A DNA stretch of 32,000 nucleotides, from NCBI RefSeq assembly GCF_001598795.1, contig NZ_BCZP01000019.1, forward strand, positions 1 to 32,000, read 5' to 3'. Both the position numbers and the translations under genes were made by a program. Shown one piece after another: positions 1,817-17,479 of this stretch (the stretch's first letter is position 1; the number at the start of each line of letters is the position of its first letter). Origin of the DNA: Delftia acidovorans NBRC 14950 (GTDB lineage Bacteria; Pseudomonadota; Gammaproteobacteria; Burkholderiales; Burkholderiaceae_C). Under the pieces are notes generated by a model. The model was not told where the DNA came from and made no database searches. It was given only the letters and a program-made list of their open reading frames with translations.

Positions 1817-2107
1817 ATGCCCGGCATCATCTTCTGGCTGCTCGTGATCGCAGCCATCCTCTTCTTCAAGCTGACCACGCCCGCCGAGCGCCGCTCGATG
1901 ATCGAGGCCTACTGGCTGATCATCATCGGGCTCGGCGCCGTGGGCTTCATCTGGCAGCTCCGGCGGAAGGTCATCCGTTTCATTACCGTGCCTCTGCAGC
2001 CATCTCCCGCATTTGCTGTCGCAGCGCCTTTGGCGAGTTGTCCGCGATACGGTCGATCCGATCCTTGCCCATCTCGCGCACCTTCTTCCACACGTCGGGC
2101 ATCTTGA
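1817..2107 (+). CDS. Small predicted two-TM membrane protein. Its 3' tail overlaps the end of the giant gene.
   Basis: The sequence MPGIIFWLLVIAAILFFKLTTPAERRSMIEAYWLIIIGLGAVGFIWQLRRKVIRF contains two hydrophobic helices. Third positions are almost all G/C for about 57 codons. Codon bias then collapses where the frame overlaps 1983..2107. Confidence 0.5.
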   Translation: MPGIIFWLLVIAAILFFKLTTPAERRSMIEAYWLIIIGLGAVGFIWQLRRKVIRFITVPLQPSPAFAVAAPLASCPRYGRSDPCPSRAPSSTRRAS

Positions 2108-5100
2108 CGACGATGGGCTGCTCTGGATTGTTCTGGTTCCAATCGGCCAGCCGTGCGCGCACGCGCGCCAGGGCGCCCTCATCCTTGCGGAACAGCGCAT
2201 CCGCCCACTGCGCCTTTATCTCGCTGCTGGTCAGGCTGTAGAAGCTCTTGGAACGCTGCATGAAACTGTTGGCTTCCTGAATCTCAGCCACGCTCTTGGG
2301 CTGAAAGCCGACAGCCTTGGCCACCGCCTCGGCCAGCGTGGTGTCGATCACCTTGTAGCCCTTGGTGTCCTTGTACATGCCGCTGGCGGCCATGTCCGCG
2401 CCCTTGAACGCATTGCGCACCGCCGTGGGAGACACCTCCAGCGCGGCTCGGCCCGCTGCGGACGGATCCAGGTTCATCACGCCACCCACCAACTCGCGCC
2501 CTGCCGCGAAGCCGCGGGACACCAGATCGCCCGCCGGCCCCACCACCTCGAGCAGATCCCGTTCCCGGCTTTGCTTGGTCAGCAGCAGGCCGGTGCCGGG
2601 CAGCAGGTTGCCCATGCCCAGGCGCCCGGAAACATCGATGGGCGCGCCTGGCAGGCCCGAGACACCCTGCTCAAGGAACTCGGTCAGCTCCTTGCCCACG
2701 ATGCTGGCCAGCGCCTCCTTGCGCCACTGCTTGGAACTGAGGTTGTAGCCCATCATCTGGCCCACGCCGTCGATAAGGTCCTCGGCGTCCTCCATGAAGG
2801 GCACGCCGCCGGCGCCGCCCATCAGCAGCAGCATGGCAAGGGCCCAGCCCACCGCGCGCTTGCCCTCCGGGCCGCCCTGCTTCCACATCCGCTGCATCAG
2901 CTCCAGGTAGCTGACGGAATAGGTCTTGAAGACGAACAGCGTGCCGCCCACGGCGCCGCGTGCCCACTGGGGCTTGTTGGCCTTGGAATAGACGAACTGG
3001 GTCTCCAGCACGGCCTTGCGCGCGAAGGCGCCCGGATCATCCATGCCCTGTGCCTTGGCGATGCGGAAGGCCGCGATGAAGGTAGAGCGCCGGTTGAACT
3101 GCTCGGCCAGGGCGAAGGGCTGGCCCCAGGCCACCTTGGCGCGTTCCCAGGCATTGCCGGCCGCCGCGCGCGCATCGCCGGCCCGCGTACCGTCGCCAGA
3201 GCGCAGGCCGCCCGCGCCGCGCGCCTGGGCCATGAGCTGGTGCACTTCCTGCGGCGAGACCACGCCGTCGTCTTCGGCAGTTTGCAGGGCATGGGCCAAG
3301 TCCGTCTCATAGCGGAAGCTCTTGTCCATCCAGGATCGACGCATATCGTTCAGTGCCCGTGTCATTTGGCCGCTGGCCGCGCGCATGCCCCCGAACTGGC
3401 TGAGCCAAGGCAGCGTCACGGCAAAGGGCTGGGTCATGTTGACCACGGCCGAAGCCAGTGAGCCGCCCAGGTACTGCGCGAACAGCATCCCGCGCACGGC
3501 CTGGCCCTCTTCCTGGGGATCGCGGATGTAGCTGCGCAGGCCCATGGCCAGGTCCTTCAGCTCCCCCTGCTCCTTCGGGATGTCGTTGATCGCACGGTCC
3601 ATGGTGCCGGCATTCAGGCCCGCCGCGCCCTGGCGCGCATTGCTGTAGATGAAGTTGGCCACCACGCGGCCCACGTCTTGGCTGTAGCCCTCGATGCCCT
3701 TGCGCTGGATCAGGCGCTTGAGCGCGCTGTGGTTGTTCTTGGTCAGCTTCAGGTATTCATCGAACACCTTGCGCGTGGCCGCGTCGGCTTCCTTGCCCAC
3801 GACCATGTCCTTGAAGATCTCCAGTGTCTCGGGAGTGATGCCCGCGAACAGCTTGAAGGACTGCTGGCTCATGGTGCCCTGCGTGATCACTGCGCCAGGG
3901 AAGGCCTGGGCCATCTGGATCTTGGCCAGGTTGGCGTCCTTCATGGTCTCGTACATGCCGAAGTACTGACGGTTGCCCTCCTGGTCCACCACGTCCAGCG
4001 TGTACCGGCCGAAACGCGACAGCGGCGCATACCCGCCGTCCTGCAGATCCTTGGCCGTGGCCGCCCGGTCCACCACCATGTTGTTCAATTGCAGCAGCCG
4101 TTCGGCCATGTCAGGCTTGGCCTTGGCATCCTCCTGCAGCGTGGTGGTCAGCAACTCCAGGGCATCGGCCAGCTTGGGTGCGTCCAGCACCATGTCACGC
4201 ATCCCGGCGTACTCGTCGCCCAGCGCGCGCATCATGTCCGCGCGGGCCGTCATGTCGATGGAGCGGTCGATGGCCGCGCGGGCTTCGCGGTACAGGGCAA
4301 TCTGATTGGGCGTGGCGCCGAACATCGTCTGCAACTCGGCATCCGTCCAGACCGCTCCGGCCTTGAGCATCTTGCTTTCGAAGCGAGAATTCACCAGCGC
4401 TTCGTACTGGGCCAGCGGCAACCCGCGCCAGTCGCGCAGCATGCGGTCGTCCAGGCGGCCGGCGCGCAGCAGCAGCTGGGCCTTGTCGTCGGCGGGCAGG
4501 TTGCCGTACTTCTTGGCCAGCTCGTCCACCAGCACGGCCTTGCCGTCCACATCCCGGCCCCACAGCAGCGTGCCCTCGAAAAGCGGCTTGGCCACGGCCT
4601 TATTGTCGGCCGCCGAGACAGGGGTCTTGCGATTCTTGCCCACGAGGTCGCTGATGGTGTCCACGCGCGGGAGCAGGCGCGGCGCCCGGTCGGCCGCGTC
4701 GTTTGCCAGCATGGACACGTCATCGATGTTGCGCTGGGCGGTCTCGTAGACCGGCTTGAAGGCTGGCGCCCGCTCAGCCAAGTGGCGCATGGTGCCGACG
4801 GTCTTGTCCCAAACAGAGACCTTGCCTGGGTGGGACATCGTCTTCTGGAGCTGGTCCAGAGCGCTGTCCTTGATCTCGGCCAACCGGGAGCGGCTGAACA
4901 TGAGGTCTTCACCACCATCTCGGCCGGCGGCCTCCCGCGTGTTGATCTGCAGGAGGCCCCGCAGTACACTGGCCACTTCTCCTGAGGTGACCTTGCCGGT
5001 GTGCCCGGATGCCGCGACAGCTGCATCGGTCCCGGAATCCCTGGCCCTCAGGAGATTTTCTTTTGTGATGACGCTATGCAAGTACATGCGCTGCGTCTCC

Positions 5101-8100
5101 GGGTTGCGGTGCACCAGCACTGTCAAGATGTCATCGGCCCCCTTGATACGCACCGGCGCGCTCACAAAGAAGCTGTCCTGGTTGCTCTGCGTGGCCTGCA
5201 TCACGACCACGCCCTTCTCCAATACGTCCTTCACAGCTGCGAAGCCAGCTGCCTTGAACGGATTCATACCGTGCGCCATGCTGTCGCGGACAGCACGCTC
5301 ATCCAGCACCACGGCACCCAGTTCGGGATTCACGGCCTGGCCACCAGCATCGCGGAACATTTTGGCCGCCCAGGCACGCAGCAGCGGATAGCCCTGGGGC
5401 GCCTCATCCCCGCGCAGCACGGCCACGGGCTCGCCCTGCAGCACGCGAGCCTTGTCCACCAACGACATCTCGGCCACGCCACGGCTGAATGACGGTTCGA
5501 TGCGATCGGTCGCGGCGCGCTGCCCGCGCTCCACAAACTCGCGCGCCGGCAGGATGTAGCCCTGGATGATGTCGGCGTCCGAGAGCTTCAGCCCCCTGAA
5601 CCCGGGCACGTTGGCCCGCAGCCAGTTGCGGATGGCGGCCACGGCCCGGCGCACGAAATGCAGCTGCGGCGTCTTCTCGGCCATCTCGGCCAGCACTTCC
5701 TCGGCCGCGTGGCGCCGGCTCAGATCCGTGACGCCGCGCAGCCCATATTCCTTGATCTTGGCCGCCACTTCGGCATGGCGCATGGTGGCCACCTGGTTGA
5801 GGATCTTGTTCAGTTCCGGCCCGAACATGCCGCGCAGGCCGTGGTGGCCCAGCACCTCGTGGTGCAGCACGCGGGCCGCGTCGGTGGGCGTGTTCAGCTT
5901 GCTGGCCAGCAGGTAGGCGCGGCCTTTCCAGTAGAAGCCCTCGGGCGCGCCACTGGCGCCGCCGCTGCGCTGGCGCAAATCCGCGCGCCGCGCTGCCTCG
6001 GGCACGGCCGGGTCGTTCATGTCGAAGGCCACCACGACTTCCGGCCCGTTGCTCCAGCCCTTGCGGATGGCGTCCACCGTCTCACGCACCTGCCCCACGG
6101 CCTGGGCCCGCGCCGCATCCGAAAACGCCGCAGGCTCGGGCCGCATGATGCGCAGCAGGTTGGCCATCTGGTCATCGGTCAGGCCCTGACCATCGGCTTT
6201 GCCGCGCCGGAACGGCAGTTCCTCGGTGCGCTCCGCCGGCCCGGCCTTCAATTCGCGTGCGCTGGGTGGCGTGGCATGGGTGCGCTCGCGCACGCCCGGC
6301 ACATCCTCCCAGCCAGAGCCCTGCTTCTCCACCTGGCGCACCGTCACGCTCCAGACGCCATCGGCGTTGGCCGGCGTGTACGAGACCACGCGGACATGGC
6401 TATCCCCGTAGCCCTTCACGATGTTGCCCGGGGTGAAGTAGTCGGCGCGCGCCGCTTCCTCAGCGGCTGCCTTCTTGGCCAGGACGCCGCGAGGCTTTGG
6501 CTTGGCTGCTGCAGCAGAGGCCGGAGCCGCAGCCTGGACTGCACCCTCGCTGGTCGTGGAGCTGGGGAACTCGCGCGCGGTGCCCAGCAGTTCGCGGATG
6601 GGCGCATCCAGCCGGATCACCTTCACGTCCTCGCCGGCTTCGCGCGCAGCCAGCCACTGGTGGTGGCCGTCGAGCACATGCCCGTCGCGCGAGACCAAGA
6701 TGGACCGATTCCCACCCTCGAAACCTTTGGCCCGTGCCACGCGCTCGCGGCTGAATTCCGCCTGCGTGGGCTTGAGGCTGGAGGCCGGCACACTCTCTTC
6801 CTGGTGCGCAATGCCGCGGGCATTCATGAAGTTGACCATGGCGCCGCGATGCTCGGCCCGGATCTGCGGCATCTCCGCACGCGGCACGCCGATGGAGCCC
6901 GAGTCGCGGGAGAACTTGGCCCAGCCGTCGCCCAGGTCGCGGCCTTCCACGGAACGTACTGGCGCGCGGCCAGCAGGTGCTGCAGGTGCTGCAGCAGCAT
7001 CGGGCATGGCGGCGGCCAGCTTCTCTCGAACCTTGGGCGCCAGGTCAGCCCAGGCGCGCGTGTGCGAGGATGCCCGCGCCAGAGCGTTCAAGCCCTTGGC
7101 AGTCTTCGCCACAGCCTGGCGCTCGGCCGCCGGCATGCTGGTCCAGCGCTCGCTGGCGGCCAGCAGCTGGGCGCGCCGCGCGTCGTTCCCTTCCTTGGCG
7201 ATGGCCACGGCCTGCTGCTGACCCACCGTGGGCGCTGGTGCAGCGGCAGGCGCTACAGCGGCAGCCTGTTCGCTGGCGCCACTTCGGCCAGGTACAGCAG
7301 ATTGCACGCTGGCAGCAGGCTGTCCGGCACTGCCACCTCGCGGCCCAGCAGGCTGTGCATCTGCCGCGCGTCCTGCCGGCTGACCGCCCCCAGCCGCCGC
7401 AGCAGCCGCAGGGCCTGCTGGGCGTTCATCTGCCAGCCGTACTGCAGGTGCGGTTGAATCATCGGTTGCTCCTTGAGGTTGCATGGCGTCAGCAAGACGG
7501 AGCTGCAGCTCCGCATTCAGGTTCTCCCAGCGCGCGCCGTGGAGACTGCCTTTGATGGCAGCATTTACACCGCCCACACGCTTGGCCAGTGCCTTGCGCT
7601 CCGCGGTGGGCATGCTGGCCCAGGCCGCGCGCCCGGCGTCGATGCGCTGGGCAGGGGTTTGGACTGGCGCTTGAGCCTGCGAGCCTGGCGCTGCAGCTGC
7701 TTGCGCGCCATCGTGCTGAGACGAGGTGGTGCCATTGCTCAGCCCCTGCGCAGCTGCAGGACCTGCAACCGGCGCTCCCTGCGCTCCTGCTGCCTGCGAA
7801 GATTCCGCGCGCGGCGGCTGGGCTTGATCGGCTTGTGTGCCATCGATGCTTCCTTGCTTGGGGGTGGTGGATGTGGGCGCAGGCGCGGTGGCACGGGCCT
7901 GCTGCTCGCGCTCAGCGCGGCGCCGCTGCAGCTCGTTGGCCAGCGGCATGCGGACTTCCTTGGCCTGGGCTGAGCGGAAGGCATTCGACAGGTCCTCATC
8001 CGTCCAGGTGGCCAGGGCCCCGCCCTGGATCTCGCCGGTGGCAGGGTCTGCAGTTACCCGGCGCTCGGATGCCTTCTTCTTGGCTGGCGCGCGTGCAGCT

Positions 8101-9647
8101 TCCTCAGTGGCCTGGGCCATGGCACTTGCCTGCTGGGCCTGAGCCGCCGCGCCGGAGTCCACGGCAATGGCAGCAGCCGCGGAAAGGGAGCCGGCCGCAG
8201 GGTCCAGGCCCATGGCCTCGGACGGGCGCAGTTCGCCGATGGCAGCGTCTATGCGAGCGGCATCGAGTTGCGGCGCAGGCGTGATGCCCTGCTCGCGCAG
8301 CCGTGCTTCATCGATCACGGGCTCTTGCTGGGCGCTCAACTGGCGCATGAATTCGTCGCGGACCTTGGCCAAGCCGGCGGGCACTTCGCCATCGGCCTGG
8401 TTCTCGCTGACCTGCTGGAACAGATCCGGACTGAAAGCCTGGTGCAGCGAGTCCGCCGCAGCCTTCCGGTCCTCGGGAGGCAGGCTCTCGTCCTGAGCGC
8501 GCGCCAGCGCATCACGGTATTGCTGCTGGCTCTCGGGCCGGACCATCTGGTCGATGGCCGGGCCGTAGGTTGCAACATCGGGCAGGCCCGCAGGCTCTGC
8601 GCCGGCATCCGGGGGCTGGGCGGCAACATCGCCCGGCTGACCAGCAGGCACCCGTGGCTCGCGCATCGCCCGATACCCCGCCGCGCCGCCGCCCATGGTC
8701 GCGCCCGACAGCGTGCCCAGCACCACAGCCGTGTCCACGTCCTGAGACCAGTCCTTCCCCAGGGCCAGGTTCTGGAAGATCTGCTCTGCCACCGACTGGG
8801 GCAGCTCCTCGAGGAAACCTTCGGAGATGGCGCCTTCGATCACCTGGCGCGGAATGCTCTTGACCGCACGATGCTGCAGCAGTGGATTCGACGCAGCTGT
8901 GGCCGCGTCATCGGCGAACTGCTTGGCGATGCCCTTGTTGCCCTGAGCCAGCATCGTCTCGGCATCACCGATGCCCAGACGCTGCGCAACTCTGCCGCCC
9001 CCAAAACTAATGCCGGCCGTAGCCGCGCCCGTGGCTGCCGCTGCGGCAGCCTGCCCAGGCGAGAGCAGTCCATCGGCCGTCTCCTGGCGAATCTGCTCAG
9101 CAGCCGAGCCCGCGCCCACGACACCCTCTCCCAGTGCTCCCGCTGCTACAGCCCCCTTCAGACCCGCCTGACCCAGCCGAGTGGCAGCAGTAAGCCCACG
9201 CGAAACCACGCCAGCAGCACCCATGGCCGGCAGCGATTCAACGACCGCGCCGACGATGTTGGAAGGGTTTTCTACCGCAGCCTTGAACTTGCCGCCCAGT
9301 CCCTCCGCTTCCTGGAATTTCCGCTGGGCTTCCTTGGTGGCGTCAGAGTGCCATTCGTTGATGGCCTCGCGCGCCTGCTTGGGCCGGAAGCCTACTGCAC
9401 CACCCTCGTTCTCCAGAATCTTGCCCGCCCGCCCGCCGGTGACGATATCAGCCAGGCCGACAGCAGCTTCAGGGACGGCCACAGCGCCCTTGGCAACCCA
9501 GGCCGCCGCGTCGCGTGCGTAGTCGGTGACGCTGCGCCCTGGCGGCTCCTTGCCATAGTCAGGATCCGCGAACGGATTCTTGGTCTGAGGCTTGGCGCTC
9601 GGCGCTTCGGCGCCGTAGTCGGGATCGGTGAACGGATTCTGTGCCAT
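1983..9647 (-). CDS. Giant (2554 aa) polyvalent virion / DNA-ejection-type protein with a ParB-like N-terminal-type domain, an HExxH zincin metallopeptidase, a PLxRFG domain and a C-terminal hydrophobic segment
   Basis: A single uninterrupted ORF. The ParB-like motif ...LKPTQAEF...ILVSRDGHVLDGHHQWLAAREAG lies at nt ~6585..6900. HHEVLGHH is at 5841..5864. PLSRFG is at 4008..4025. The hydrophobic AVGWALAMLLLMGGAGGVPF lies at ~2797..2856. Ala/Gly/Pro/Gln-rich linkers join the modules. The gene lies within the virion-gene block, downstream of the head genes. Confidence 0.9.
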   Translation of the reverse strand: MAQNPFTDPDYGAEAPSAKPQTKNPFADPDYGKEPPGRSVTDYARDAAAWVAKGAVAVPEAAVGLADIVTGGRAGKILENEGGAVGFRPKQAREAINEWHSDATKEAQRKFQEAEGLGGKFKAAVENPSNIVGAVVESLPAMGAAGVVSRGLTAATRLGQAGLKGAVAAGALGEGVVGAGSAAEQIRQETADGLLSPGQAAAAAATGAATAGISFGGGRVAQRLGIGDAETMLAQGNKGIAKQFADDAATAASNPLLQHRAVKSIPRQVIEGAISEGFLEELPQSVAEQIFQNLALGKDWSQDVDTAVVLGTLSGATMGGGAAGYRAMREPRVPAGQPGDVAAQPPDAGAEPAGLPDVATYGPAIDQMVRPESQQQYRDALARAQDESLPPEDRKAAADSLHQAFSPDLFQQVSENQADGEVPAGLAKVRDEFMRQLSAQQEPVIDEARLREQGITPAPQLDAARIDAAIGELRPSEAMGLDPAAGSLSAAAAIAVDSGAAAQAQQASAMAQATEEAARAPAKKKASERRVTADPATGEIQGGALATWTDEDLSNAFRSAQAKEVRMPLANELQRRRAEREQQARATAPAPTSTTPKQGSIDGTQADQAQPPRAESSQAAGAQGAPVAGPAAAQGLSNGTTSSQHDGAQAAAAPGSQAQAPVQTPAQRIDAGRAAWASMPTAERKALAKRVGGVNAAIKGSLHGARWENLNAELQLRLADAMQPQGATDDSTAPAVRLADERPAGPAAAAAAGGGQPAGRAADAQPAGPRGGSAGQPAASVQSAVPGRSGASEQAAAVAPAAAPAPTVGQQQAVAIAKEGNDARRAQLLAASERWTSMPAAERQAVAKTAKGLNALARASSHTRAWADLAPKVREKLAAAMPDAAAAPAAPAGRAPVRSVEGRDLGDGWAKFSRDSGSIGVPRAEMPQIRAEHRGAMVNFMNARGIAHQEESVPASSLKPTQAEFSRERVARAKGFEGGNRSILVSRDGHVLDGHHQWLAAREAGEDVKVIRLDAPIRELLGTAREFPSSTTSEGAVQAAAPASAAAAKPKPRGVLAKKAAAEEAARADYFTPGNIVKGYGDSHVRVVSYTPANADGVWSVTVRQVEKQGSGWEDVPGVRERTHATPPSARELKAGPAERTEELPFRRGKADGQGLTDDQMANLLRIMRPEPAAFSDAARAQAVGQVRETVDAIRKGWSNGPEVVVAFDMNDPAVPEAARRADLRQRSGGASGAPEGFYWKGRAYLLASKLNTPTDAARVLHHEVLGHHGLRGMFGPELNKILNQVATMRHAEVAAKIKEYGLRGVTDLSRRHAAEEVLAEMAEKTPQLHFVRRAVAAIRNWLRANVPGFRGLKLSDADIIQGYILPAREFVERGQRAATDRIEPSFSRGVAEMSLVDKARVLQGEPVAVLRGDEAPQGYPLLRAWAAKMFRDAGGQAVNPELGAVVLDERAVRDSMAHGMNPFKAAGFAAVKDVLEKGVVVMQATQSNQDSFFVSAPVRIKGADDILTVLVHRNPETQRMYLHSVITKENLLRARDSGTDAAVAASGHTGKVTSGEVASVLRGLLQINTREAAGRDGGEDLMFSRSRLAEIKDSALDQLQKTMSHPGKVSVWDKTVGTMRHLAERAPAFKPVYETAQRNIDDVSMLANDAADRAPRLLPRVDTISDLVGKNRKTPVSAADNKAVAKPLFEGTLLWGRDVDGKAVLVDELAKKYGNLPADDKAQLLLRAGRLDDRMLRDWRGLPLAQYEALVNSRFESKMLKAGAVWTDAELQTMFGATPNQIALYREARAAIDRSIDMTARADMMRALGDEYAGMRDMVLDAPKLADALELLTTTLQEDAKAKPDMAERLLQLNNMVVDRAATAKDLQDGGYAPLSRFGRYTLDVVDQEGNRQYFGMYETMKDANLAKIQMAQAFPGAVITQGTMSQQSFKLFAGITPETLEIFKDMVVGKEADAATRKVFDEYLKLTKNNHSALKRLIQRKGIEGYSQDVGRVVANFIYSNARQGAAGLNAGTMDRAINDIPKEQGELKDLAMGLRSYIRDPQEEGQAVRGMLFAQYLGGSLASAVVNMTQPFAVTLPWLSQFGGMRAASGQMTRALNDMRRSWMDKSFRYETDLAHALQTAEDDGVVSPQEVHQLMAQARGAGGLRSGDGTRAGDARAAAGNAWERAKVAWGQPFALAEQFNRRSTFIAAFRIAKAQGMDDPGAFARKAVLETQFVYSKANKPQWARGAVGGTLFVFKTYSVSYLELMQRMWKQGGPEGKRAVGWALAMLLLMGGAGGVPFMEDAEDLIDGVGQMMGYNLSSKQWRKEALASIVGKELTEFLEQGVSGLPGAPIDVSGRLGMGNLLPGTGLLLTKQSRERDLLEVVGPAGDLVSRGFAAGRELVGGVMNLDPSAAGRAALEVSPTAVRNAFKGADMAASGMYKDTKGYKVIDTTLAEAVAKAVGFQPKSVAEIQEANSFMQRSKSFYSLTSSEIKAQWADALFRKDEGALARVRARLADWNQNNPEQPIVVKMPDVWKKVREMGKDRIDRIADNSPKALRQQMREMAAEAR

Positions 9648-9677
9648 CCCCCCACTCTCAAGGAGAGGTGCGGGGGC

Positions 9678-9697
9678 GGTCGAACCCTAGCCGGGGG
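9678..9697 (-). promoter_or_regulatory. Conserved intergenic motif, copy 2 (minus strand CCCCCGGCTAGGGTTCGACC)
   Basis: The AACCCTAG core is at 9683..9690, exactly 36 nt from ATG 9647 of the giant gene. Confidence 0.55.
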
Positions 9698-10118
9698 CGG
9701 ATGCAGAGCAGCCCCTGGGCGGTGGGGCGTATTTTGATCGGGAGGACAGCGGCCCACTCTGGAGATGGGCATTTCCTTCTGCATTTGCCCCCGAAGGTGC
9801 CGCCGCGCGGTCCAGCGAGTCCATTGCGATGTCGATAGCCGCGCGCGCCCTGGAGAAATCGACGGTCCAGCTGGTGTCGGGTGCCAGCGGCAAGTCTGGC
9901 CGGTCGGTGGCCACGCAGCCGCCGTGGAAGTCGAACTCGCGGCGCGCGAGCAGTAGCACGTCGCGCACATAGGCCAGGTCGGCGTCGGCGGGCCGCGCGC
10001 CCGCTTCAGCCCGCCGCGCCGCAGCCCTCGCACGATGCGCCGCGCACAGGGCTACGCAGACCAAGGCAAGCGCCAGGAGCAGCGCACCGGAGAGGATGAG
10101 GATGGGGAGATGTGCCAT
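9687..10118 (-). CDS. Hypothetical single-pass membrane protein (143 aa)
   Basis: The N-terminal helix is MAHLPILILSGALLLALALVCVALCAAH. G/C-rich third positions persist through about the first 110 codons. The 3' end overlaps motif copy 2. A degenerate motif copy lies 34 nt upstream. Confidence 0.55.
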   Translation of the reverse strand: MAHLPILILSGALLLALALVCVALCAAHRARAAARRAEAGARPADADLAYVRDVLLLARREFDFHGGCVATDRPDLPLAPDTSWTVDFSRARAAIDIAMDSLDRAAAPSGANAEGNAHLQSGPLSSRSKYAPPPRGCSASAPG

Positions 10119-10227
10119 GCCCCAGTGTCAGCACCGGGGCGGGATCGCGCGAACCCTGGGCGTGGCTGATGGGTGTGGTACTGGGCGCACTGACGCTGCA
10201 GGTCACGTGGTAGCCCAGAAGCGACGA

Positions 10228-10245
10228 AGCCCGCCGAAGCGGGCT
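10228..10245. terminator. GC-rich hairpin just outside the AT-rich island. Likely terminator for the DUF4411 operon.
   Basis: AGCCCGC-CGAA-GCGGGCT forms a 7-bp stem. On the minus-strand RNA the loop is UUCG. It lies about 55 nt downstream of the stop at 10301. The U-tract is weak on both strands. Confidence 0.45.
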
Positions 10246-10300
10246 CTTTACAACAAAGGGCGTGAAGTCTTTCGAGGGTATCAAACAGCGCGCTACAACG

Positions 10301-10822
10301 TCACGCACCTGCCAATTCTCGATGTAGAAATGTAGACTCGGAGTGTTTCGAAAGCATGTCATAGACATACATCGTTTTCACATTATTTGCCGCCGCTGCG
10401 TCGGGTATTAATATTTTACGCCGTTGCGCAGGGTTGCTTAGCTCCTGTGTCACCACCGTGTAGTTATACGCTTTAGCCACAGCAATTAAGAAAGCATCAG
10501 CCACTTCATTCTTGGCAAATTCTTTTTTTGCGTGCTCTTTAAAGTTACTGGCGTTGGCCCACTGCATTATTGAGCCATACTCCGCCATTACCTTAACATC
10601 AGCCATGTCGTCAATAAAGAACGTGGCAGGCAAAGTTTTGACCCAGGCGCAGCAGTTATCTTCCCGAGCAGTTAGTTCATCTTTAACTTTTTTTATCGAG
10701 TAGACAATGCCGTTGTCGTGCGCCACTTTGAGCCAATCCCAAAATCCACCGCAAAAATCGAAGCGATAGTACATGTTCTTGGCTTGGATGAACACATTGG
10801 CGTCAATAAGATACTTTGCCAA
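10301..10822 (-). CDS. DUF4411-type PIN-like nuclease domain protein (putative toxin/effector)
   Basis: It starts at TTG, preceded by GAGAGGTG. The N-terminus (M)AKYLIDANVFIQAKNMYYRFDFCGGFWDWL matches the DUF4411/PIN-like pattern as I remember it. A later acidic motif reads ADAFLIAVAKA. It begins 2 nt after the upstream stop. The sequence is AT-rich. Confidence 0.8.
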   Translation of the reverse strand: MAKYLIDANVFIQAKNMYYRFDFCGGFWDWLKVAHDNGIVYSIKKVKDELTAREDNCCAWVKTLPATFFIDDMADVKVMAEYGSIMQWANASNFKEHAKKEFAKNEVADAFLIAVAKAYNYTVVTQELSNPAQRRKILIPDAAAANNVKTMYVYDMLSKHSESTFLHRELAGA

Positions 10823-10824
10823 AC

Positions 10825-11961
10825 CTACACCTCTCTTTTCCTGTAAAGCTCGGCCACTGCATTCGAAGAAATATTAAGCAACGCGCCAGCATCCCTAAGC
10901 ATCACACGACCAGCAAAAGCCTCGGAAACTAAGGCATTGGTAAGCTTTTTGCTATTTCTTACAAGAACTGTTTTGTAATAATCGCCACCGCCATCGGCAT
11001 TAGCTTTTGCATCGTTTGCTTTCGTTTGGTGCAGCACACTTAGATACGACTCCTTATCCATAAGATCAAGATCCATCGCCCTCTTCGCAATCACCAACCG
11101 ACTCACCTTGAAATAATTTGGAAGTCTGTACAACGCAAGATCTCCCCAAACGTTCCACTGATCCAAAAATTCATTTTCAGGTGTCAGCACCTCAGCTGCA
11201 ACTTGATTGCACTTCTGCTCTAGTCCATCAAACCTACCAAGTACAGAGACAGACACATCAGATACACCGCTTGCACCAAGCCAAATGTGCGCTATTTCAT
11301 GCAGCAGAGTAAAAATCCACGCTGCCGCACTATCTTTCCCATTAATAAAAACGACTGGTGCGAATTTATCCACCAAAGCAAAGCCGCGAAATTCTTCAAC
11401 ATTAAGTGGCTTATGAGCATTGTTTTGCACAACGCCGTTTTTGAACACCAGTATGCCTGCTGCCTCTACACGTTTAACCAACTCCGCGTAATACTGTTCT
11501 TTAGTATCACATTTAACTCTAAGCGCGACATCGCACCCAAGAGTCGCAGAGATGCTCTCGGCAACAGCTTTTGCAGAAGCGGTTTTTTGGTCAAAGCTTC
11601 CAACAAACGGAAGTTGATCAGCTTCACAATCTTTTAAAAATTCCGAATACCATTCCTGTTTCTTTTTTACATCAGCCAACGTGTCAAAAAAAGCTCGCGA
11701 GAGCCGCTTTGCGCCTGGCACTTGCCGCAGGTCGGGTATTTCTGGATCGGGGATGTTAGGCGGCTCGCGTAAGAAAAGGAAGCCGAAAGGCACCTGCGCA
11801 ATGGAGGCAAATTTTTCTGCCTGCTTCGCGGTGAGCTTGCCATCCATAACTTGCTGAGTCTTCGAGGGACCTGCGACACGGGCAGCAAGTTGCTCGACAG
11901 TGGAACCTATGTTCCCTGCCGCCCACTGGAGGACTTCTGGTGCGAGACTGAGCGTTGCCAT
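10825..11961 (-). CDS. HTH (XRE-like) plus ImmA/IrrE family (COG2856, Peptidase_M78-like) zinc metallopeptidase
   Basis: The HExxH motif is LLHEIAHIWLG, with downstream ...CNQVAAEVLTPENEF typical of ImmA/IrrE. The N-terminal ~70 aa are helix-turn-helix-like. The sequence is AT-rich. It forms an operon with 10301..10822. Confidence 0.8.
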   Translation of the reverse strand: MATLSLAPEVLQWAAGNIGSTVEQLAARVAGPSKTQQVMDGKLTAKQAEKFASIAQVPFGFLFLREPPNIPDPEIPDLRQVPGAKRLSRAFFDTLADVKKKQEWYSEFLKDCEADQLPFVGSFDQKTASAKAVAESISATLGCDVALRVKCDTKEQYYAELVKRVEAAGILVFKNGVVQNNAHKPLNVEEFRGFALVDKFAPVVFINGKDSAAAWIFTLLHEIAHIWLGASGVSDVSVSVLGRFDGLEQKCNQVAAEVLTPENEFLDQWNVWGDLALYRLPNYFKVSRLVIAKRAMDLDLMDKESYLSVLHQTKANDAKANADGGGDYYKTVLVRNSKKLTNALVSEAFAGRVMLRDAGALLNISSNAVAELYRKREV

Positions 11962-12105
11962 TTGGGGCGTATCCTATCAAATGAATGTAACAAGCCGTAG
12001 AACAATGTTTTCGGTTCGTTCACCTATCATTCGTACACAGATGTAGGGACTGGTCCATCTCCGGCGGTGTTGCATGGGACGGGTACAACCCAGAGGGAGC
12101 AACAC

Positions 12106-12771
12106 ATGAGGAAATTCCTCAGATACCAATTCGTTCTGCTGATAGCCACATGGGCAACTTGCAGTGTGGCCGCTGACTACGCCACCTGCCTGCTAGACAA
12201 GCTCCCTGGGGTCAAGAACGCGCCGGCCCACGCTGCCGCGCTGAACCTGTGCGCCCAGCAGCACCCTGACAAGTTCTTCGAGGTGCGCCGCGGCTCAGGG
12301 CGTGGGCTGCTGGGCCCGAAGTCTCCAGAGCAGTGCACACTGGACAAGGCGCGGGACACATCCTGGCAGCCGGCGGCAGGGATGATCATGCGCGCGTGCG
12401 GTTGCCTGTACACGCCGAGCGCTGGACCGACGGACATGTGCGAGCGGTATCCGCTGTCTGCGGAGATTCGCGCGCAGCACCCGCTGGTGAAGACGGATGC
12501 CGAACTGCTGAAGCTGGAGACCCACTACCGGAAGATCTACACAGCGCACCCAGATGCGGATGCGCTGTTCGCGCGCAAGGACTTCTGGGCGTGGGTGACG
12601 CAGGACAAGGGCCGGGAGAACGCGATCACCAAGGGCTCCACCGACACGGTGATACGCACGATGAGCGAATTCAAGGCCAATGACTGGGAGCGCGGGACCA
12701 TGAAGGCCCCGCCCAGCGGAAGCAATCCGTTCGCTGACCCCAACTACGGTAGAGAGCTTCTACAGAAATAG
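12106..12771 (+). CDS. Secreted Cys-rich hypothetical protein (221 aa) ending in NPFADPNYGRELLQK
   Basis: ATG 12106 follows GGGAG. The signal peptide is MRKFLRYQFVLLIATWATCSVAADY. Eight Cys are present. It is on the opposite strand to the flanking virion genes. Track ORF 12067.. begins at an upstream GTG, which I consider less likely. Confidence 0.7.
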   Translation: MRKFLRYQFVLLIATWATCSVAADYATCLLDKLPGVKNAPAHAAALNLCAQQHPDKFFEVRRGSGRGLLGPKSPEQCTLDKARDTSWQPAAGMIMRACGCLYTPSAGPTDMCERYPLSAEIRAQHPLVKTDAELLKLETHYRKIYTAHPDADALFARKDFWAWVTQDKGRENAITKGSTDTVIRTMSEFKANDWERGTMKAPPSGSNPFADPNYGRELLQK

Positions 12772-12775
12772 GCCG

Positions 12776-14449
12776 TCAACGCGGTGCGATGACGCGAGCT
12801 GCCGCGCCCTTCCCATAGATCTCGTCAAACATGGCCGCTTGTCCTGGGTTCGCACGCAATGCGGCGATGTGATTTGCAGAGGGCTGGGCCGTGTTACCCC
12901 CATCCACCCTCTGCACATCCCCCGTGGACTTGTTGTAGCGGATGACACTTCCCTCGGTTGTAGAGCCGTCGGCGTTCTTTGTGGCGGGCGTGACCTGCAG
13001 AGCCCACGGCGACGGATCTGCATCGCCCCGAATCGCGCGCATGGCCTGCTGAGCCTGCTGCTTCTGCTGGGGCGTGGCATTGGGATCAAGGAGCGTATTG
13101 CGCAGCTGCTCTTCCTGGCGCTGGGCCCGGGTCTTGAAGCCGCGCGCTTCTGCCTCTCCCTGCAGGCGCTGCTGCTCAATGCCCACGCGCATGCCCGTGC
13201 GCCCTGTTTCCCCGGCCTGCTGCATGGCCTCGCGCTGAAGTCCGCCGGCTTGCTGCATGTCTTCGCGCATGAGGCCTGCGTTCTGGCGCATGGTCTCGGC
13301 TTCCAGACCTGGCTGCGCCTGGCGCAAAACCGCGTCGGTACCCAGCATGGCGCGGTACCGCTGCATGTCCGGGCTATTTTCAGCCCCACGCCCGCCGAAG
13401 CGCCGCGTGTTGGTGATGGAGCTGGCAGACACCTCGGCATTGCGCAGGTCGTTGCGGGATTGCCAGTCGTTGCCCGAGTGGGCGATGGTGGGCGTGCGAA
13501 AGCCCGGAAAGCCCAGGCGCGGCTGCTCGACCTCGGTGCGCTGGCCGGGGGTGAAGCCGCGGGCTGTCGATTGGTCGGCTAGGTTCTGAGCGGCCAGGTC
13601 GTTTTGCCGAGAGGGCAAGCCGCGCGGCTCGCTGCCCAGGGCCGCGCCCTGTGCGCTGTCGGAGAAGCTGTTGCCCTGGCGGAAGATCCCGGGCTGGACT
13701 TCCTGTGGCGCCGCCGAGCTGGGCGGGCCCATGGTGCTGCCGGCGGATGGCGTGGCCTGCGGCGAGGTGGCCGTGGCTGCTGGAGCTGTGGATGGCGTGG
13801 GATTCACACCTGTTGAGGCTGCAGCGGGTGTCGAAGCCGCGGCACCACCACCAGCGATCCCGGCACCACCGGCAAGCGCGCGCGGGGCATTGAGGCCGGA
13901 GTTGAGCGCGCCGCTGATGGCCCCGCCAGTTCGCGCGATGGCACGGGCGCTACCACCCAGCGCACCAGGCACAGCATTGGCCAGGTTCGACACATTGCGG
14001 CCCAGCTCGGTGTTCATGGGATTGGACTGCGAGCCATCTGGTGTCGGCGCCTTGGGGTAGCCGCCCAAGGGGATCTGGTCCTCTGGCCGGCCACCGTTGG
14101 CGAAGAACACCTTGGGCTTGAAGCCGCGCGGCACGAATGCCTGTTCGGGTGCTGGTGTGTGGGTGGCATCGACGGCGGCCTGCAGCGCGCCCGCGCCGCC
14201 CATGGCGTGCACGGTATCGGGTGGCAGCACGAACTCCCCAGGCTTGAACATGCCGGGGATGGAATCGGGAGCTTGGTTCTGTGCCTGAGCTCTCTGCGCT
14301 TCCAGCACCGATGTGGGGCCGAAGCCCAGGCCAGGCCCTGGCTGGCCCCGCTCCTGCTCGCTGCCGCGCGGCCGGAACCCCAGGCGGGGCTGGTTGGCCA
14401 GCGCTTCAGCCCTGGCCTGCTTCATTTTCTCGGGATCGAATCCTCGCAT
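12776..14449 (-). CDS. Low-complexity Gly/Ala/Gln/Pro-rich phage protein (557 aa), probably virion-associated
   Basis: A strong AGGAGGAG precedes ATG 14449. The ORF is long with G/C-rich third positions. It sits between the head-completion genes and the giant protein. Function is not recognisable. Confidence 0.7.
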   Translation of the reverse strand: MRGFDPEKMKQARAEALANQPRLGFRPRGSEQERGQPGPGLGFGPTSVLEAQRAQAQNQAPDSIPGMFKPGEFVLPPDTVHAMGGAGALQAAVDATHTPAPEQAFVPRGFKPKVFFANGGRPEDQIPLGGYPKAPTPDGSQSNPMNTELGRNVSNLANAVPGALGGSARAIARTGGAISGALNSGLNAPRALAGGAGIAGGGAAASTPAAASTGVNPTPSTAPAATATSPQATPSAGSTMGPPSSAAPQEVQPGIFRQGNSFSDSAQGAALGSEPRGLPSRQNDLAAQNLADQSTARGFTPGQRTEVEQPRLGFPGFRTPTIAHSGNDWQSRNDLRNAEVSASSITNTRRFGGRGAENSPDMQRYRAMLGTDAVLRQAQPGLEAETMRQNAGLMREDMQQAGGLQREAMQQAGETGRTGMRVGIEQQRLQGEAEARGFKTRAQRQEEQLRNTLLDPNATPQQKQQAQQAMRAIRGDADPSPWALQVTPATKNADGSTTEGSVIRYNKSTGDVQRVDGGNTAQPSANHIAALRANPGQAAMFDEIYGKGAAARVIAPR

Positions 14450-14467: not shown

Positions 14468-15139
14468 TCACAGGGTATGGACCACGGTCACCTGGGGCTC
14501 GTCGTGACGGGTCGCACGGCGCAGATCGGCGTCGGGGCGGGCGCCGAAGTAGGCTTCAAACTCACCCAGCGCAGTGCCGGAGCGGGAGGGATCGAAGCCA
14601 TCGGAGTCCGGCAGACCGAAAGCGCGATGCAGCGCCCAGTGCACGAGGTAGGCGTGGTGAGCCTCATGTATCTCGGGTTTTTCGTTGCAGTGGGTCAATT
14701 GCTTGAGCGGTAGCCGATAGGCCTCCAGCCGCAGCGTCCCCGCCTCGCGCGGCGCAGGCACCAGGCGCAGCCGCGTCTCGGTCTGGATGGCGAAGCGAGG
14801 CTCGCCCGGCCCGTGATCGCGCCAGTGCGGATGTTTGGCATCCAGAAATTCGCGCGACACGAGGTCCAGCCCGCACGCGTGCGATGTGGCCGCGCTCACG
14901 AACCGCAGATGCGATATTTCGTAGACCTTTGGATGCAGCTGGTAGCTGACCACCCCGGCCGCGACAGCGATTTCGCACACGGCAGGCGTGGAATCGTCCA
15001 GCAGCAGGCGGCCACGCACTGCGGCTTCGGCCTGTGCCTCATTGAGCCAGGCCAGCACCTCGGGTTCGCCCCAGAGATAGGGTTGCTCCCGGTCAAGGGA
15101 GTCCACCCGGAACTGTTCCACCAGCTGCTGAACGTTCAT
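14468..15139 (-). CDS. Hypothetical head-completion / head-tail adaptor-like protein
   Basis: ATGA overlap with the upstream gene. It lies downstream of the capsid genes. The function is assigned by position only. Confidence 0.65.
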   Translation of the reverse strand: MNVQQLVEQFRVDSLDREQPYLWGEPEVLAWLNEAQAEAAVRGRLLLDDSTPAVCEIAVAAGVVSYQLHPKVYEISHLRFVSAATSHACGLDLVSREFLDAKHPHWRDHGPGEPRFAIQTETRLRLVPAPREAGTLRLEAYRLPLKQLTHCNEKPEIHEAHHAYLVHWALHRAFGLPDSDGFDPSRSGTALGEFEAYFGARPDADLRRATRHDEPQVTVVHTL

Positions 15140-16192: not shown

Positions 16193-17479
16193 TTACAGGC
16201 GGCGGCCGAAGATCGGCACCACGGTGTCGATCACGGTGGCGCCGTGGTCGGTGAACTCGACCCGATCACCCATATCCACGGCGAAGCGGATCTTGGAGGC
16301 GCCCAGAATGCCGCCGATCAGCGATTCGAGCTTGTCCTCGAAGTCGTCGTCCTGCTCCTTCCAGAAGTACGGCAGGCCGTTGTGGCGGCTCTTGGCGTAG
16401 CCCTTGGCCAGGGCCTGGCCGCCCAGCAGAATGGCGCGGTCCACAGCGAAGGTTTCGCCGAAGGACTGGGGCACGATCACGCCGGCCTCGGTCTCGCTGT
16501 CGAACTCGGTGCAGTACTTGATCTGATCACCAGCAAAGAAGCGGATCGGCTTGGGCATCTTCACGATCAGCACGCCGCCCCACAGGGCCACCTCGGGATT
16601 GCGGAACAGCGGGTGGTCCTTGGCATTGCGCGCGCGGGCCAGGGCCTGGGCTTGGTAATTCCGGAAGTTCGGGTCGGTGGAGAACTTCTCGTACTGGGCA
16701 TCCGACACCAGCAGCACCCGGAACGGGCTGTCCTTGGCCATCTCGTCGCCATTGAACTCCACGGGGGGCGGCGGGAGCACCATCTGGCCGATGAAGCTGC
16801 GGATGGCGTCCACGTTGGACATCTTCATGATGTCGGCCGTGGTCAGGTCCACCTCGCCGGCATTCACCTTGAAGCGCTGGACCGAATCCCCGTCCACGAT
16901 GAAATGGCGGTTCTTGGTCGGAGCCTTCACGCGGTTGACCACCACCTTGTTGAAGCGAGGATCCGCCGCGAGGGGGATGCGCCAGGTGATGTTGTCTTCG
17001 AAGCCGCGCGCTCCTGCCATGTGCACCAGCGACAACTGGTCCTCGTAGTTGTCCATGGCGCTTTGCAGCAAAGGCTTGGCCAGGCGGTAGATATCGACGG
17101 GGCTGCGCACCTCGTCCATCACGCCGCCCAGGTCCAGCGGGAAGCGGGCCTGGTTCACGCGCAGACGGTCTTCGGACAGGCTCACGCCCTCGCCGCGACC
17201 GGCAGCGTACTCGCCGCCCATGATGGGGATGCCGCCAACCGGGTTGACGAAGTTGAACTTCAGCTCGTCGCCCTTGCCCTTGCCCAGGTCCATGGTCTGG
17301 ACGATGGGCATGGTATTGCTCGTCTGATTGGCAATCGAGCTGGCGGCAGCATCGATCTTCGGGAACTTGCCCGTAAGACGGTTGATGTTGGAATGGCGCT
17401 TCTGCGTTGCAGTGAAAACGCCCATGGCCTGCTGGACAAGCTTTTGCTTGTCGCTGGCCGACATTGCGGTTTTGGTCAT
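16193..17479 (-). CDS. Major capsid protein (428 aa)
   Basis: GAGGA lies 6 nt before ATG 17479. The size and its position after the scaffold gene fit a capsid gene, and a hairpin follows it. It possibly belongs to the N4-gp56-like capsid family, from memory only. Confidence 0.8.
   Translation of the reverse strand: MTKTAMSASDKQKLVQQAMGVFTATQKRHSNINRLTGKFPKIDAAASSIANQTSNTMPIVQTMDLGKGKGDELKFNFVNPVGGIPIMGGEYAAGRGEGVSLSEDRLRVNQARFPLDLGGVMDEVRSPVDIYRLAKPLLQSAMDNYEDQLSLVHMAGARGFEDNITWRIPLAADPRFNKVVVNRVKAPTKNRHFIVDGDSVQRFKVNAGEVDLTTADIMKMSNVDAIRSFIGQMVLPPPPVEFNGDEMAKDSPFRVLLVSDAQYEKFSTDPNFRNYQAQALARARNAKDHPLFRNPEVALWGGVLIVKMPKPIRFFAGDQIKYCTEFDSETEAGVIVPQSFGETFAVDRAILLGGQALAKGYAKSRHNGLPYFWKEQDDDFEDKLESLIGGILGASKIRFAVDMGDRVEFTDHGATVIDTVVPIFGRRL

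Follow-up and report, generated by a model that had tools for sequence, protein, structure and literature searches.

The window, a stretch of 32,000 nucleotides from Delftia acidovorans NBRC 14950, carries a compact two-gene cassette in the middle of a block of virion genes (Table 1). The first gene encodes a 378-aa protein of the HTH/M78 (ImmA/IrrE) metallopeptidase type and the second a 173-aa protein of the DUF4411 type, referred to below as the antitoxin and the toxin. The stop codon of the antitoxin gene (TAG, 10827-10825) is followed after 2 nt by the TTG codon (10822) that opens the toxin frame, which reads MAKYLIDANVF...FDFCGGFWDWL and ends at 10301. A Shine-Dalgarno-like GAGG core lies 7 nt 5' of this TTG, within the end of the antitoxin gene. 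The cassette is the lowest-GC stretch of the window: its genes have 46.5% GC, compared with a window mean of 64.1% (sd 5.7% in windows of equal size), and a GC3 of 0.44-0.51, compared with 0.77-0.88 in the backbone genes. This composition marks the cassette as foreign DNA. The AT-rich operon described in the original prediction is thereby confirmed, with both reading frames, the short gap and the TTG start where they had been placed.

Table 1. The cassette, its control and flanking elements and the variable segment that contains it (columns: feature, positions in the window, strand, remarks)
Antitoxin gene (putative sensor), 378 aa	10825..11961	-	HTH/M78 (ImmA/IrrE) metallopeptidase; ORF list and profile matches
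Toxin gene, 173 aa, TTG start	10301..10822	-	DUF4411 PIN-like nuclease; ORF list and profile matches
Conserved block of ~80 nt 5' of the antitoxin ATG	11962..12041	-	Presumed promoter, operator and 5'UTR; near-invariant in the window, L001 and L025
UUCG-loop hairpin, GC-rich	10228..10245	-	56 nt past the toxin stop; backbone element, at best a weak terminator
Left hotspot flank, 234-aa gene, signal peptide, four-cysteine VF_A0006-like	12067..12771	+	NCBIfam VF_A0006_fam, E = 9.8e-9, below cut-off
Right hotspot flank, 143-aa protein, hydrophobic N-terminus	9687..10118	-	ORF list; homologues in most relatives
Variable (cargo) segment of the hotspot, ~2.0 kb	10166..12166	.	blastn against related loci; unshared with most related phages; 47.6% GC

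The toxin matches the Pfam family DUF4411 (PF14367) with 146.7 bits against a cut-off of 23.5 (E = 6.4e-43), and its match to PHROG 11126 spans the full 173-aa protein. Its score for the PIN model PF01850 is 15.7 bits, below the cut-off of 23.6. The AF2 model of the toxin (pLDDT 90.3) shows a PIN fold, and all of its 20 best Foldseek matches are to PIN-domain proteins, VapC/FitB among them, with a probability of 1.0. Of 132 toxin homologues, 130-132 retain each of four acidic residues (D7, E49, D109 and E127); their presence in a confident PIN-fold model supports the PIN-like nuclease that had been postulated. A profile of the toxin family matches chain D of PDB entry 9VZY (9vzy_D; VapC52, described as 'DUF4411 family protein') with an E value of 7e-15, and D7 aligns with the region of VapC52 that contains the catalytic residue D6.

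The antitoxin matches Pfam Peptidase_M78 (E = 1e-12) and, over its full length, PHROG 2439 (8e-47), so that both Pfam families anticipated for the pair (PF06114 and PF14367) were found. It comprises an XRE-like helix-turn-helix (HTH) domain (residues ~1-65), an IrrE/M78 zinc peptidase core and a C-terminal helical domain. In the AF2 model (pLDDT 86.5), five helices at the N-terminus precede an alpha/beta peptidase core, and further helices make up the C-terminal part. The motif LLHEIAHIWLG, already noticed in the translation, occupies residues 219-229 and provides most of a zinc site (H221-E222-x-x-H225 plus E248) that is invariant in 115 of 115 partner proteins sharing 31-79% identity. Foldseek related the model to IrrE/PprI with a probability of 1.0 and gave partial N-terminal matches to SinR, C.BclI and C.AhdI. 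The HTH-like character ascribed to the N-terminus thus stands on these partial XRE matches and on an alignment with the N-terminal domain of VapB52, but not on Pfam, none of whose HTH models matched the 378-aa protein at E<0.1. Pfam likewise detected no GAF domain in the antitoxin.

The two genes are obligate partners. A gene of the M78 family lies directly upstream of the toxin gene and on the same strand in all 109 loci with enough upstream DNA, as expected from the conserved neighbourhood suggested in the original prediction. Seven loci seemed to have no such neighbour, but in these the toxin start had been over-extended in the ORF calls and the M78 ORF ends at the true start. The commonest distances between the two genes are -4 (47 loci) and -1 (39 loci), and the more one protein of a locus resembles its counterpart in the window, the more the other tends to do so (identities, Pearson r 0.78, n=112). 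The toxin family is large, with 6,333 cluster representatives, and most homologues are found on ordinary chromosomal or metagenomic contigs. Among GenBank phages, megablast with window positions 9000-15000 gave no match, and a tblastn search with the toxin gave only two phage matches, both to unannotated faecal phage contigs.

On sequence homology of both proteins, the pair is a relative of VapBC52 of Mycobacterium tuberculosis, the structures of which are available as PDB 9VZY and 9VZZ (Singh et al., Nucleic Acids Res 2026 (June), PMC13273310). A phmmer comparison of the antitoxin with VapB52 (9vzy_A) gave an E value of 5e-14 and aligned residues 9-360 with residues 5-370; the residues of the HExxH motif and the downstream Glu fall on H216, H220 and E245 of VapB52. 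Both systems combine a DUF4411 PIN toxin with a large antitoxin (~380-415 aa) that is encoded directly upstream and in which an HTH-like domain at the N-terminus is followed by an IrrE-type peptidase domain (HExxH+E) and a helical domain at the C-terminus. The original prediction knew of no experimental mechanism for DUF4411/M78 pairs, but one has since been published: in VapBC52, ssDNA triggers autocleavage of the antitoxin, which frees a tRNA-cleaving toxin (PMC13273310). The likeness extends to a junction motif with an invariant Arg (FR in VapB52, LR here). In the antitoxin this motif is P76-D77-L78-R79, opposite DFRR in the alignment with VapB52; all 116 partners share R79, and position 78 is occupied by L in 47, F in 44, R in 20 and Y in 4 of them. 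By analogy with the 'FR' motif proposed for VapB52, the PD(L/F)R junction is a putative autocleavage site.

The two systems also differ in several respects. Their kinship is distant, the sequences studied here being of a proteobacterial type and those of VapBC52 actinobacterial, and the present pair occupies a hotspot among the virion genes of a prophage whereas VapBC52 resides in the chromosome of a pathogen. In addition, the zinc-capping cysteine of VapB52 (C229), nine residues after HExxH, is replaced here by Ser234. Among 116 partners this position is S in 100, D in 12 and T in 2 but never Cys, and no Cys occurs anywhere between HExxH and E248 in any of the 116. As the cassette shows, the VapBC52-type module is no mycobacterial oddity but a widespread mobile unit, whose pairing was strict in every locus tested.

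The architecture found here is exactly that predicted by Matelska et al. (2017, PMC5499597), who placed DUF4411.1 downstream of a fused HTH-DUF955 (COG2856) gene in a three-component toxin-antitoxin (TA) system; their prediction was purely computational and did not include a phage or hotspot context or a comparison at the level of residues. Canonical VapBC systems consist of a PF01850 PIN toxin and a small RHH, AbrB or Phd antitoxin (~8-13 kDa), whereas the toxin described here is sub-threshold for that model and the antitoxin has 378 aa. In RosmerTA (RmrT/RmrA; Millman et al. 2022; Ernits et al. 2023, PMC10440598), too, exchangeable toxins are paired with an ImmA-like Zn-peptidase antitoxin, which in many cases has an HTH at its N-terminus. 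RosmerTA systems, one of them phage-encoded, have been demonstrated to act against phages, and PIN-like domains are among the recorded partners of the ImmA hub. However, neither the RmrT of Ernits et al. (RmrT-D5 of phage Kita), which depolarises the membrane (PMC10440598), nor that of Millman et al., of unknown function, is a DUF4411 nuclease. Of the 17 PADLOC families that matched the antitoxin, 15 were RmrA models, with weak scores (best 3.6e-10, 37.5 bits) that mostly covered the peptidase part only, and the DUF4411 protein matched no PADLOC model at E<0.1, RmrT included. An assignment to RosmerTA was rejected on these grounds, and PADLOC-type tools, which had been recommended for recognising the cassette, would not call it.

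The antitoxin also shares the M78/IrrE peptidase fold and zinc site with the proteases of CapP/CapH, IrrE/DdrO and ImmA/ImmR, for two of which, CapP and IrrE, activation by ssDNA is documented. In those systems, a separate HTH repressor is cleaved and transcription is switched on; here HTH and peptidase form one polypeptide, and the proposed output is release of a toxin. It is very improbable that the cassette is a switch of this sort, in which the peptidase would cleave a separate repressor, that of the prophage or a regulator of adjacent genes, so as to govern induction or the expression of cargo, the PIN protein having an accessory part. Such a role would account for the M78 family membership, the structural similarity to IrrE and a PADLOC match of the antitoxin to capP (E = 5.6e-8), as well as for the position of the pair in some lambdoid contigs, where it lies between a CI-like repressor and an N-like antiterminator (elsewhere it follows tail genes). 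Yet those CI-like repressors cleave themselves (S24/UmuD type), and no small HTH repressor ORF that could serve as substrate lies beside the cassette, whose neighbours are, apart from the DUF4411 gene itself, the gene of a secreted four-cysteine protein. The fusion of HTH and peptidase is that of the self-cleaving VapB52, and the partner is DUF4411 in 109 of 109 loci. An ImmA-type anti-repressor role was consequently rejected as the main reading. Moreover, most sister phages lack the cassette but have the same backbone, indicating that it is dispensable for their life cycle, which also argues against a regulatory switch.

The phage backbone was delimited by comparison with related phage loci drawn from IMG/VR; a scan of genome contigs with the adaptor protein returned one short MAG contig. 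The phage has a P22-type portal and an SU10-type adaptor, and one relative (L001) is an integrated prophage in a Delftia acidovorans chromosome. In blastn alignments, backbone homology to most relatives stops at 12167-12169 and resumes at 10157-10166. The slot thus defined lies within the morphogenesis block, between the adaptor and 557-aa genes and the gene of a giant polyvalent virion protein (2554 aa, 1983..9647) that contains an LPD3 domain. Contrary to the original prediction, the cassette does not adjoin the 557-aa gene, because the 234-aa gene intervenes on the opposite strand; it is convergent with the 557-aa gene and has homologues at the same place in 20 related loci. At the other end, the 143-aa gene is directly upstream of the 2554-aa gene, and in most relatives its homologues sit downstream of the variable segment.

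The same slot contains R-M-like genes, PDC-M02, a Fic protein, other PIN pairs or unknown genes in 14 related phages. Its cargoes include a Dcm methylase with a PD-Lambda-5_A-like protein, PDC-M02 A and B, a Dcm methylase with FRG/PDC-S15 and GmrSD_N/NsnA-like proteins, and a SoFic-like Fic protein. Others belong to no known family: a pair of 414 and 509 aa in L028, an NA37-like protein with one of 430 aa in L024, a PIN protein with a ~300-aa partner in L007 and L026, and three small membrane proteins in L021. The position of the cassette is a recombination and cargo hotspot of this phage family and is not, as first thought, an unusual placement inside a structural operon; elsewhere, the pair is found at classic moron sites. 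Hotspots for defence genes are known from other prophages, for example those of P2 and P4, and lambda carries rexAB next to cI. The present slot resembles them in that it is a fixed site between conserved phage genes whose AT-rich cargo, of the defence or moron kind, changes from one relative to the next, and differs in lying within the morphogenesis block. The occurrence of a VapBC52 relative where related phages carry other anti-phage genes indicates that the cassette is real and of a known kind.

The location among late and virion genes, the common orientation with the downstream late genes and the proximity of the giant LPD3 protein gene might also be expected of counter-defence or host-takeover cargo, with a nuclease and a protease that would act for the infecting phage itself, perhaps by breaking down RNAs or defence proteins of the host. 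This is very improbable in view of the moron-like composition and distribution of the cassette, the preponderance of homologues on ordinary chromosomal or metagenomic contigs, and the homology to a chromosomal TA pair; strict antitoxin-toxin coupling, furthermore, argues for self-restraint rather than attack.

Two elements flank the genes of the cassette. The block upstream of the antitoxin gene is near-invariant among the window, L001 and L025, while the adjoining coding DNA is only ~75-77% identical. It carries an AGGA Shine-Dalgarno sequence and two copies of TGATAGG, which form a direct repeat 50 nt apart; the proximal copy overlaps the Shine-Dalgarno sequence, and the repeat is retained as a mere candidate for an operator. 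A sigma-70 scan of positions 11962-12105 gave no match and inspection by eye revealed no convincing -35/-10 pair in that interval, so that a promoter in the block is presumed. The second element is the hairpin downstream of the toxin gene (AGCCCGC-UUCG-GCGGGCU), which occurs once in the window. The predicted hairpin with its UUCG loop is indeed present, but it does not close the unit. The sequence UCGUCGCUUCU follows it directly, without a U-tract; a terminator scan did not call the hairpin, and the predicted folding of the 96-nt tail is no better than that of shuffled sequences. Identical hairpins exist in three relatives (L013, L022 and L002), in one of which (L022) the hairpin trails a different cargo, but none is found in L001 and L025, both of which carry the cassette. 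Its presence after another cargo and its absence from these two carriers show that it belongs to the local phage backbone. The notion that the cassette is insulated by its own terminator was therefore abandoned.

The gene structure, the homologies and folds, the conservation of catalytic and junction residues, the obligate pairing, the foreign composition and the hotspot context together suggest, with a probability of roughly 0.7, that the cassette is a horizontally acquired, prophage-borne type II TA module of the VapBC52 type, residing in the virion-block cargo hotspot of a Delftia/Comamonadaceae-type temperate podovirus. The core of the original prediction, that a sensor protease controls a PIN-like nuclease within a prophage-borne module of the TA or abortive-infection type, is supported by the profile matches, the PIN residues, the pairing and the relationship to VapB52 and VapC52. 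Both proteins would be made from a single transcript, given the 2-nt gap and the GAGG in the end of the first gene. The DUF4411 protein is probably a metal-dependent RNase of the PIN fold and, judging from the tRNA targets of VapBC52, most likely a tRNase. By analogy with the same system, the antitoxin may inhibit the toxin by direct binding, with the HTH-like domain gripping the toxin dimer and the C-terminal helices covering the active site. The central IrrE/M78 zinc peptidase would serve as a built-in sensor, which would cut its own chain at PD(L/F)R, between the N-terminal and middle domains. The trigger, if it resembles that of VapBC52, would most likely be ssDNA arising from infection by another phage or from DNA damage. 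The freed toxin would then cleave RNA and arrest the cell, resulting in abortive infection or superinfection exclusion, an anti-phage role that the genomic context suggests.

The same architecture, and the homology to a bona fide TA pair, would suit a pure addiction module, which by post-segregational killing would only secure the persistence of the prophage, or of the cassette itself in the hotspot, without protecting against other phages. The behaviour of the cassette as a selfish mobile unit in many unrelated contexts is in line with such a function, as is the finding that Mycobacterium smegmatis was protected from phage D29 by over-expression of the VapBC52 toxin only and not by co-expression of toxin and antitoxin (PMC13273310). 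However, sister phages carry R-M-like and other candidate defence genes in the same slot, ImmA-type antitoxin systems such as RosmerTA defend against phage, and the lambdoid copies of the pair are located beside immunity genes. Pure addiction is accordingly considered unlikely, though less so than either of the alternatives discussed above. The slots at which temperate phages carry the VapBC52-type module are those of morons or defence genes, and a Delftia-type lysogen offers a natural setting in which to test defence by the intact system, which the published VapBC52 work did not show. The findings leave current concepts unchanged.

The lack of the latency cysteine of VapB52 and CapP, a feature that this clade shares with IrrE and some CapP homologues, implies that latency and trigger may differ here. 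An ssDNA-triggered toxin carried by a phage could harm the lytic cycle of that phage itself, and the prophage copy would need to avoid firing on its own replication intermediates. Tentatively, the cysteine-less clade may be kept latent or be triggered in a manner unlike VapB52 and CapP, possibly through a leaky activity like that of IrrE, an aspartate-type cap or a response to a phage protein. It is equally tentative, and a separate matter, that the family-less cargoes of the hotspot could be new defence systems. The hotspot provides a practical lead to further defence genes.

The cassette is a foreign, coupled two-gene unit whose partners pair obligatorily and which lies in a hotspot rich in defence genes. 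ORF calling returned the predicted gene positions, including the TTG start of the toxin gene, 2 nt after the antitoxin stop codon (TAG, 10827-10825). The proposed ImmA/IrrE-type peptidase and DUF4411 families were also recovered: in Pfam, the 378-aa antitoxin matches Peptidase_M78 (E 1e-12) and the 173-aa toxin matches DUF4411 (E 6.4e-43), with a sub-threshold PIN signal (PF01850), and both proteins have full-length PHROG matches (2439 for the antitoxin, 11126 for the toxin). A GAGG lies 7 nt 5' of the toxin TTG, within the end of the antitoxin gene, which suggests that translation of the two genes is coupled from this site. The genes are compositionally foreign and as AT-rich as predicted, their 46.5% GC being the lowest in the window (64.1%) and their GC3 0.44-0.51 versus 0.77-0.88 in neighbouring phage genes.

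Features of the cassette, the surrounding phage block and the corresponding slot of related phage loci (L numbers)
Feature	Position	Strand	Remarks
Antitoxin gene, 378 aa	10825..11961	-	ORF call; contains LLHEIAHIWLG
Toxin gene, 173 aa	10301..10822	-	ORF call; TTG start at 10822
UUCG hairpin	10228..10245		
Small terminase gene	22668..23582		
P22-type portal gene	18794..21139		
Phage_capsid_3 capsid gene	16193..17479		
SU10-type adaptor gene	14468..15139		
557-aa protein gene	12776..14449	-	
234-aa protein gene	12067..12771	+	opposite strand to cassette; signal peptide; weak VF_A0006 four-cysteine match
2554-aa polyvalent protein gene	1983..9647		LPD3 domain
Slot cargo, L005			Dcm methylase + PD-Lambda-5_A-like protein
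Slot cargo, L010			PDC-M02 A and B (E 1e-64 and 5e-140)
Slot cargo, L022			Dcm methylase + FRG/PDC-S15 + GmrSD_N/NsnA-like proteins
Slot cargo, L030			SoFic-like Fic protein
Slot cargo, L007	L007:14432-15918		PIN-like protein + unassigned ~300-aa partner
Slot cargo, L026	L026:5968-7382		PIN-like protein + unassigned ~300-aa partner
Slot cargo, L016	L016:12906-15505		split NA37-like protein + 231 aa + 202 aa (weak S_4TM)
Slot cargo, L024	L024:13710-16113		NA37/YejK-like protein + 430 aa
Slot cargo, L021	L021:13190-14496		three small membrane proteins
Slot cargo, L028	L028:6955-9725		414 + 509 aa

The toxin belongs to a large family, with 6,333 representatives (E ≤ 1e-3, library clustered at 50% identity), and the antitoxin has at least 1,984 matches. 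Among 142 loci encoding DUF4411 relatives, retrieved from metagenomes and IMG/VR, an M78-family ORF lies directly upstream on the same strand in all 109 with enough upstream DNA, most often with a gap of -4 nt (47 loci) or -1 nt (39 loci). How closely one partner resembles its window counterpart correlates with how closely the other does (Pearson r 0.78 between identities). Pairing of the M78 antitoxin with the DUF4411 toxin is obligate. Seven loci that at first seemed to lack an upstream M78 gene proved to be ORF-calling artefacts. On unrelated viral contigs the pair occupies classic moron sites: some 18 of 62 loci have it beside a CI-like repressor, 12 of these with a downstream N-like antiterminator, and about five have it 3' of tail genes. 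In a lambdoid group (L127, L133, L146 and ~15 similar IMG/VR loci) it is flanked by a CI-like repressor of the S24/UmuD type on one side and an N-like antiterminator on the other, the place of rexAB in lambda.

The PIN active site and the zinc peptidase are intact. Toxin residues D7, E49, D109 and E127 are kept in 130-132 of 132 homologues, and peptidase residues H221, E222, H225 and E248 in all 115 partners (the M78 antitoxins beside DUF4411 relatives), across sequences down to ~31-33% identity; thus, both proteins are expected from their sequences to be active enzymes. The toxin model (pLDDT 90.3) matches VapC/FitB PIN toxins with probability 1.0, while the antitoxin model (pLDDT 86.5) matches IrrE/PprI across ~190 columns. 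Residues 1 to ~60 of the antitoxin, an HTH-like N-terminal domain, resemble XRE-type HTH domains (SinR, C.BclI, C.AhdI) with lower confidence. Three residues past the zinc-binding E248 (E-x-x-C-N), C251 is kept in 114 of 115 partners and also in VapB52; it is not the cysteine switch position.

The closest characterized system is VapBC52 of M. tuberculosis. The antitoxin matches PDB chain 9vzy_A (E 5e-14, residues 9-360 against 5-370), and the toxin profile matches 9vzy_D and 9vzz_A (E 7e-15), both titled "DUF4411 family protein"; entry 9VZY is the VapBC52 complex and 9VZZ the VapC52 toxin (Singh et al., NAR, June 2026, PMC13273310). In that complex the antitoxin:toxin ratio is 1:2, the HTH-like N-terminal domain of VapB52 is required for toxin binding, and its C-terminal domain blocks the toxin active site. 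The zinc ligands are H216, H220 and E245, with C229 as the cap ("cysteine switch"). Self-cleavage of VapB52 is triggered by ssDNA, depends on HExxH and releases the N-terminal domain; the cut is proposed to fall in an FR motif that is conserved where the two domains join. VapC52 cuts tRNA in anticodon or variable loops, and its over-expression protected M. smegmatis against phage D29, whereas co-expression of toxin and antitoxin did not (PMC13273310).

The window pair shares with VapBC52 both partner families, domain order, gene order and zinc site. PDLR in the window antitoxin aligns with DFRR of VapB52 and is a putative counterpart of the FR junction motif; its Arg (R79) is invariant, and 91 of 116 partners have L or F at position 78. 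Unlike VapB52, the window antitoxin has Ser234 in place of the switch cysteine. This position is Ser, Asp or Thr across the 116 partners, none of which has a Cys between HExxH and E248. Such variation has precedent in the peptidase family: ssDNA stimulates IrrE and some CapP homologues even though they have no switch. Ser234 is therefore taken as a clade difference rather than a new principle, and the trigger in the cysteine-less clade may differ from that of VapB52.

By analogy with VapBC52, the antitoxin would neutralize the toxin through direct binding and, on sensing ssDNA, would cut itself at the domain junction, setting a tRNase free. The genomic context suggests that the cassette may be expressed in the lysogen and exclude superinfecting phages by abortive infection. 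A pure addiction module is less likely, as are an anti-repressor switch of the ImmA kind and a role in phage offence. The core of the original prediction, a TA-type sensor protease controlling a PIN nuclease, is upheld by homology to VapBC52, obligate pairing and intact catalytic residues. The cassette belongs to a kind whose architecture was predicted computationally in 2017 (DUF4411.1/HTH-DUF955, PMC5499597) and characterized in 2026, within the wider ImmA-antitoxin (RosmerTA) neighbourhood, a group with demonstrated anti-phage activity (PMC10440598). The more useful by-products are the cysteine-less sensor variant and a hotspot with several unassigned cargoes.

This hotspot emerged when window proteins were mapped onto 27 related phage loci retrieved with the adaptor protein as query. 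Backbone genes keep one order: adaptor, 557-aa gene, opposite-strand VF_A0006-like gene, variable segment, 143-aa gene and giant protein gene. In most relatives, homology to window DNA breaks at 12167-12169 and restarts at 10157-10166. In the related loci the variable segment spans 1.2-3.8 kb at 42-61% GC (whole loci 59-65%). Only the window, L001 (an integrated prophage of Delftia acidovorans and the closest named relative) and L025 carry the M78-DUF4411 pair there (78-82% aa identity), together with L002 and L003, short contigs almost identical to the window. The position had been considered unusual, but the slot holds varied cargo across related phages; therefore, the location is typical of this phage family. 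None of the cargoes of L028, L024, L016, L007, L026 and L021 matched a PADLOC model, and Pfam gave them little signal if any; they are candidates for undescribed defence or moron systems. There seems to be a second variable slot between the 143-aa and giant protein genes (L001:11600-13800, with an acetyltransferase, an H-NS-like protein and small ORFs; L005:16350-18600, ~2.3 kb). In the window these genes are ~40 nt apart and the slot is empty.

Nor is the UUCG hairpin the cassette's own terminator, as had been proposed: it lacks a U-tract, and the terminator scan made no call on it. It is a backbone element, common to the window, L013 and L022 (where it follows different cargo) and absent from L001 and L025 despite the same cassette. 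An 80-nt block 5' of the antitoxin ATG is almost unchanged among the three cassette phages, whose coding DNA is 75-77% identical; this would fit a promoter/operator, but a sigma-70 scan found no consensus within the block.

The window is a phage morphogenesis block. The cassette lies among virion genes, but not directly beside the 557-aa gene: the 234-aa gene, absent from the original prediction, intervenes. It and the 557-aa gene converge, which places the cassette at a transcription-unit break rather than within a single operon. The two stops are 4 nt apart (12769-12778); late transcription of the 557-aa gene would therefore enter the 234-aa gene antisense. The 2554-aa product, whose sole Pfam match is LPD3 (E 4e-6), shows by eye a ParB/sulfiredoxin-like stretch (DGHHQW) and a metalloprotease-like HEVLGHH motif; it is probably a polyvalent protein that is ejected. 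Of three copies of the peptide motif NPF(A/T)DP(N/D)YG, one is at the C-terminus of the 234-aa protein (12724-12750, +), and the 2554-aa protein has the other two at its N-terminus (9612-9638 and 9552-9578, -). As DNA, they are imperfect inverted repeats (26 nt at 85%, 34 nt at 76%) flanking the 143-aa gene, cassette and 234-aa gene. In L007 and L016, the opposite-strand gene beside the 557-aa homologue also ends in a motif of this kind. The motif may be a binding motif common to these proteins, or a remnant of an inversion or recombination event.

Two further low-GC islands were seen. The first lies shortly upstream of the small terminase gene (23648-24798, 46-52% GC), and its two minus-strand ORFs (193 and 192 aa) overlap. 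The 192-aa product, for which Pfam gave no match, weakly matches the C-terminal region of the PsyrT/ShosT toxin in PADLOC (E 2e-9 and 2e-6); the island may be further TA or defence cargo. The other (976-1722, ~50% GC), just past the end of the giant protein gene, contains a plus-strand 248-aa ORF with an F5/8 type C (galactose-binding-like) domain (E 1e-11).
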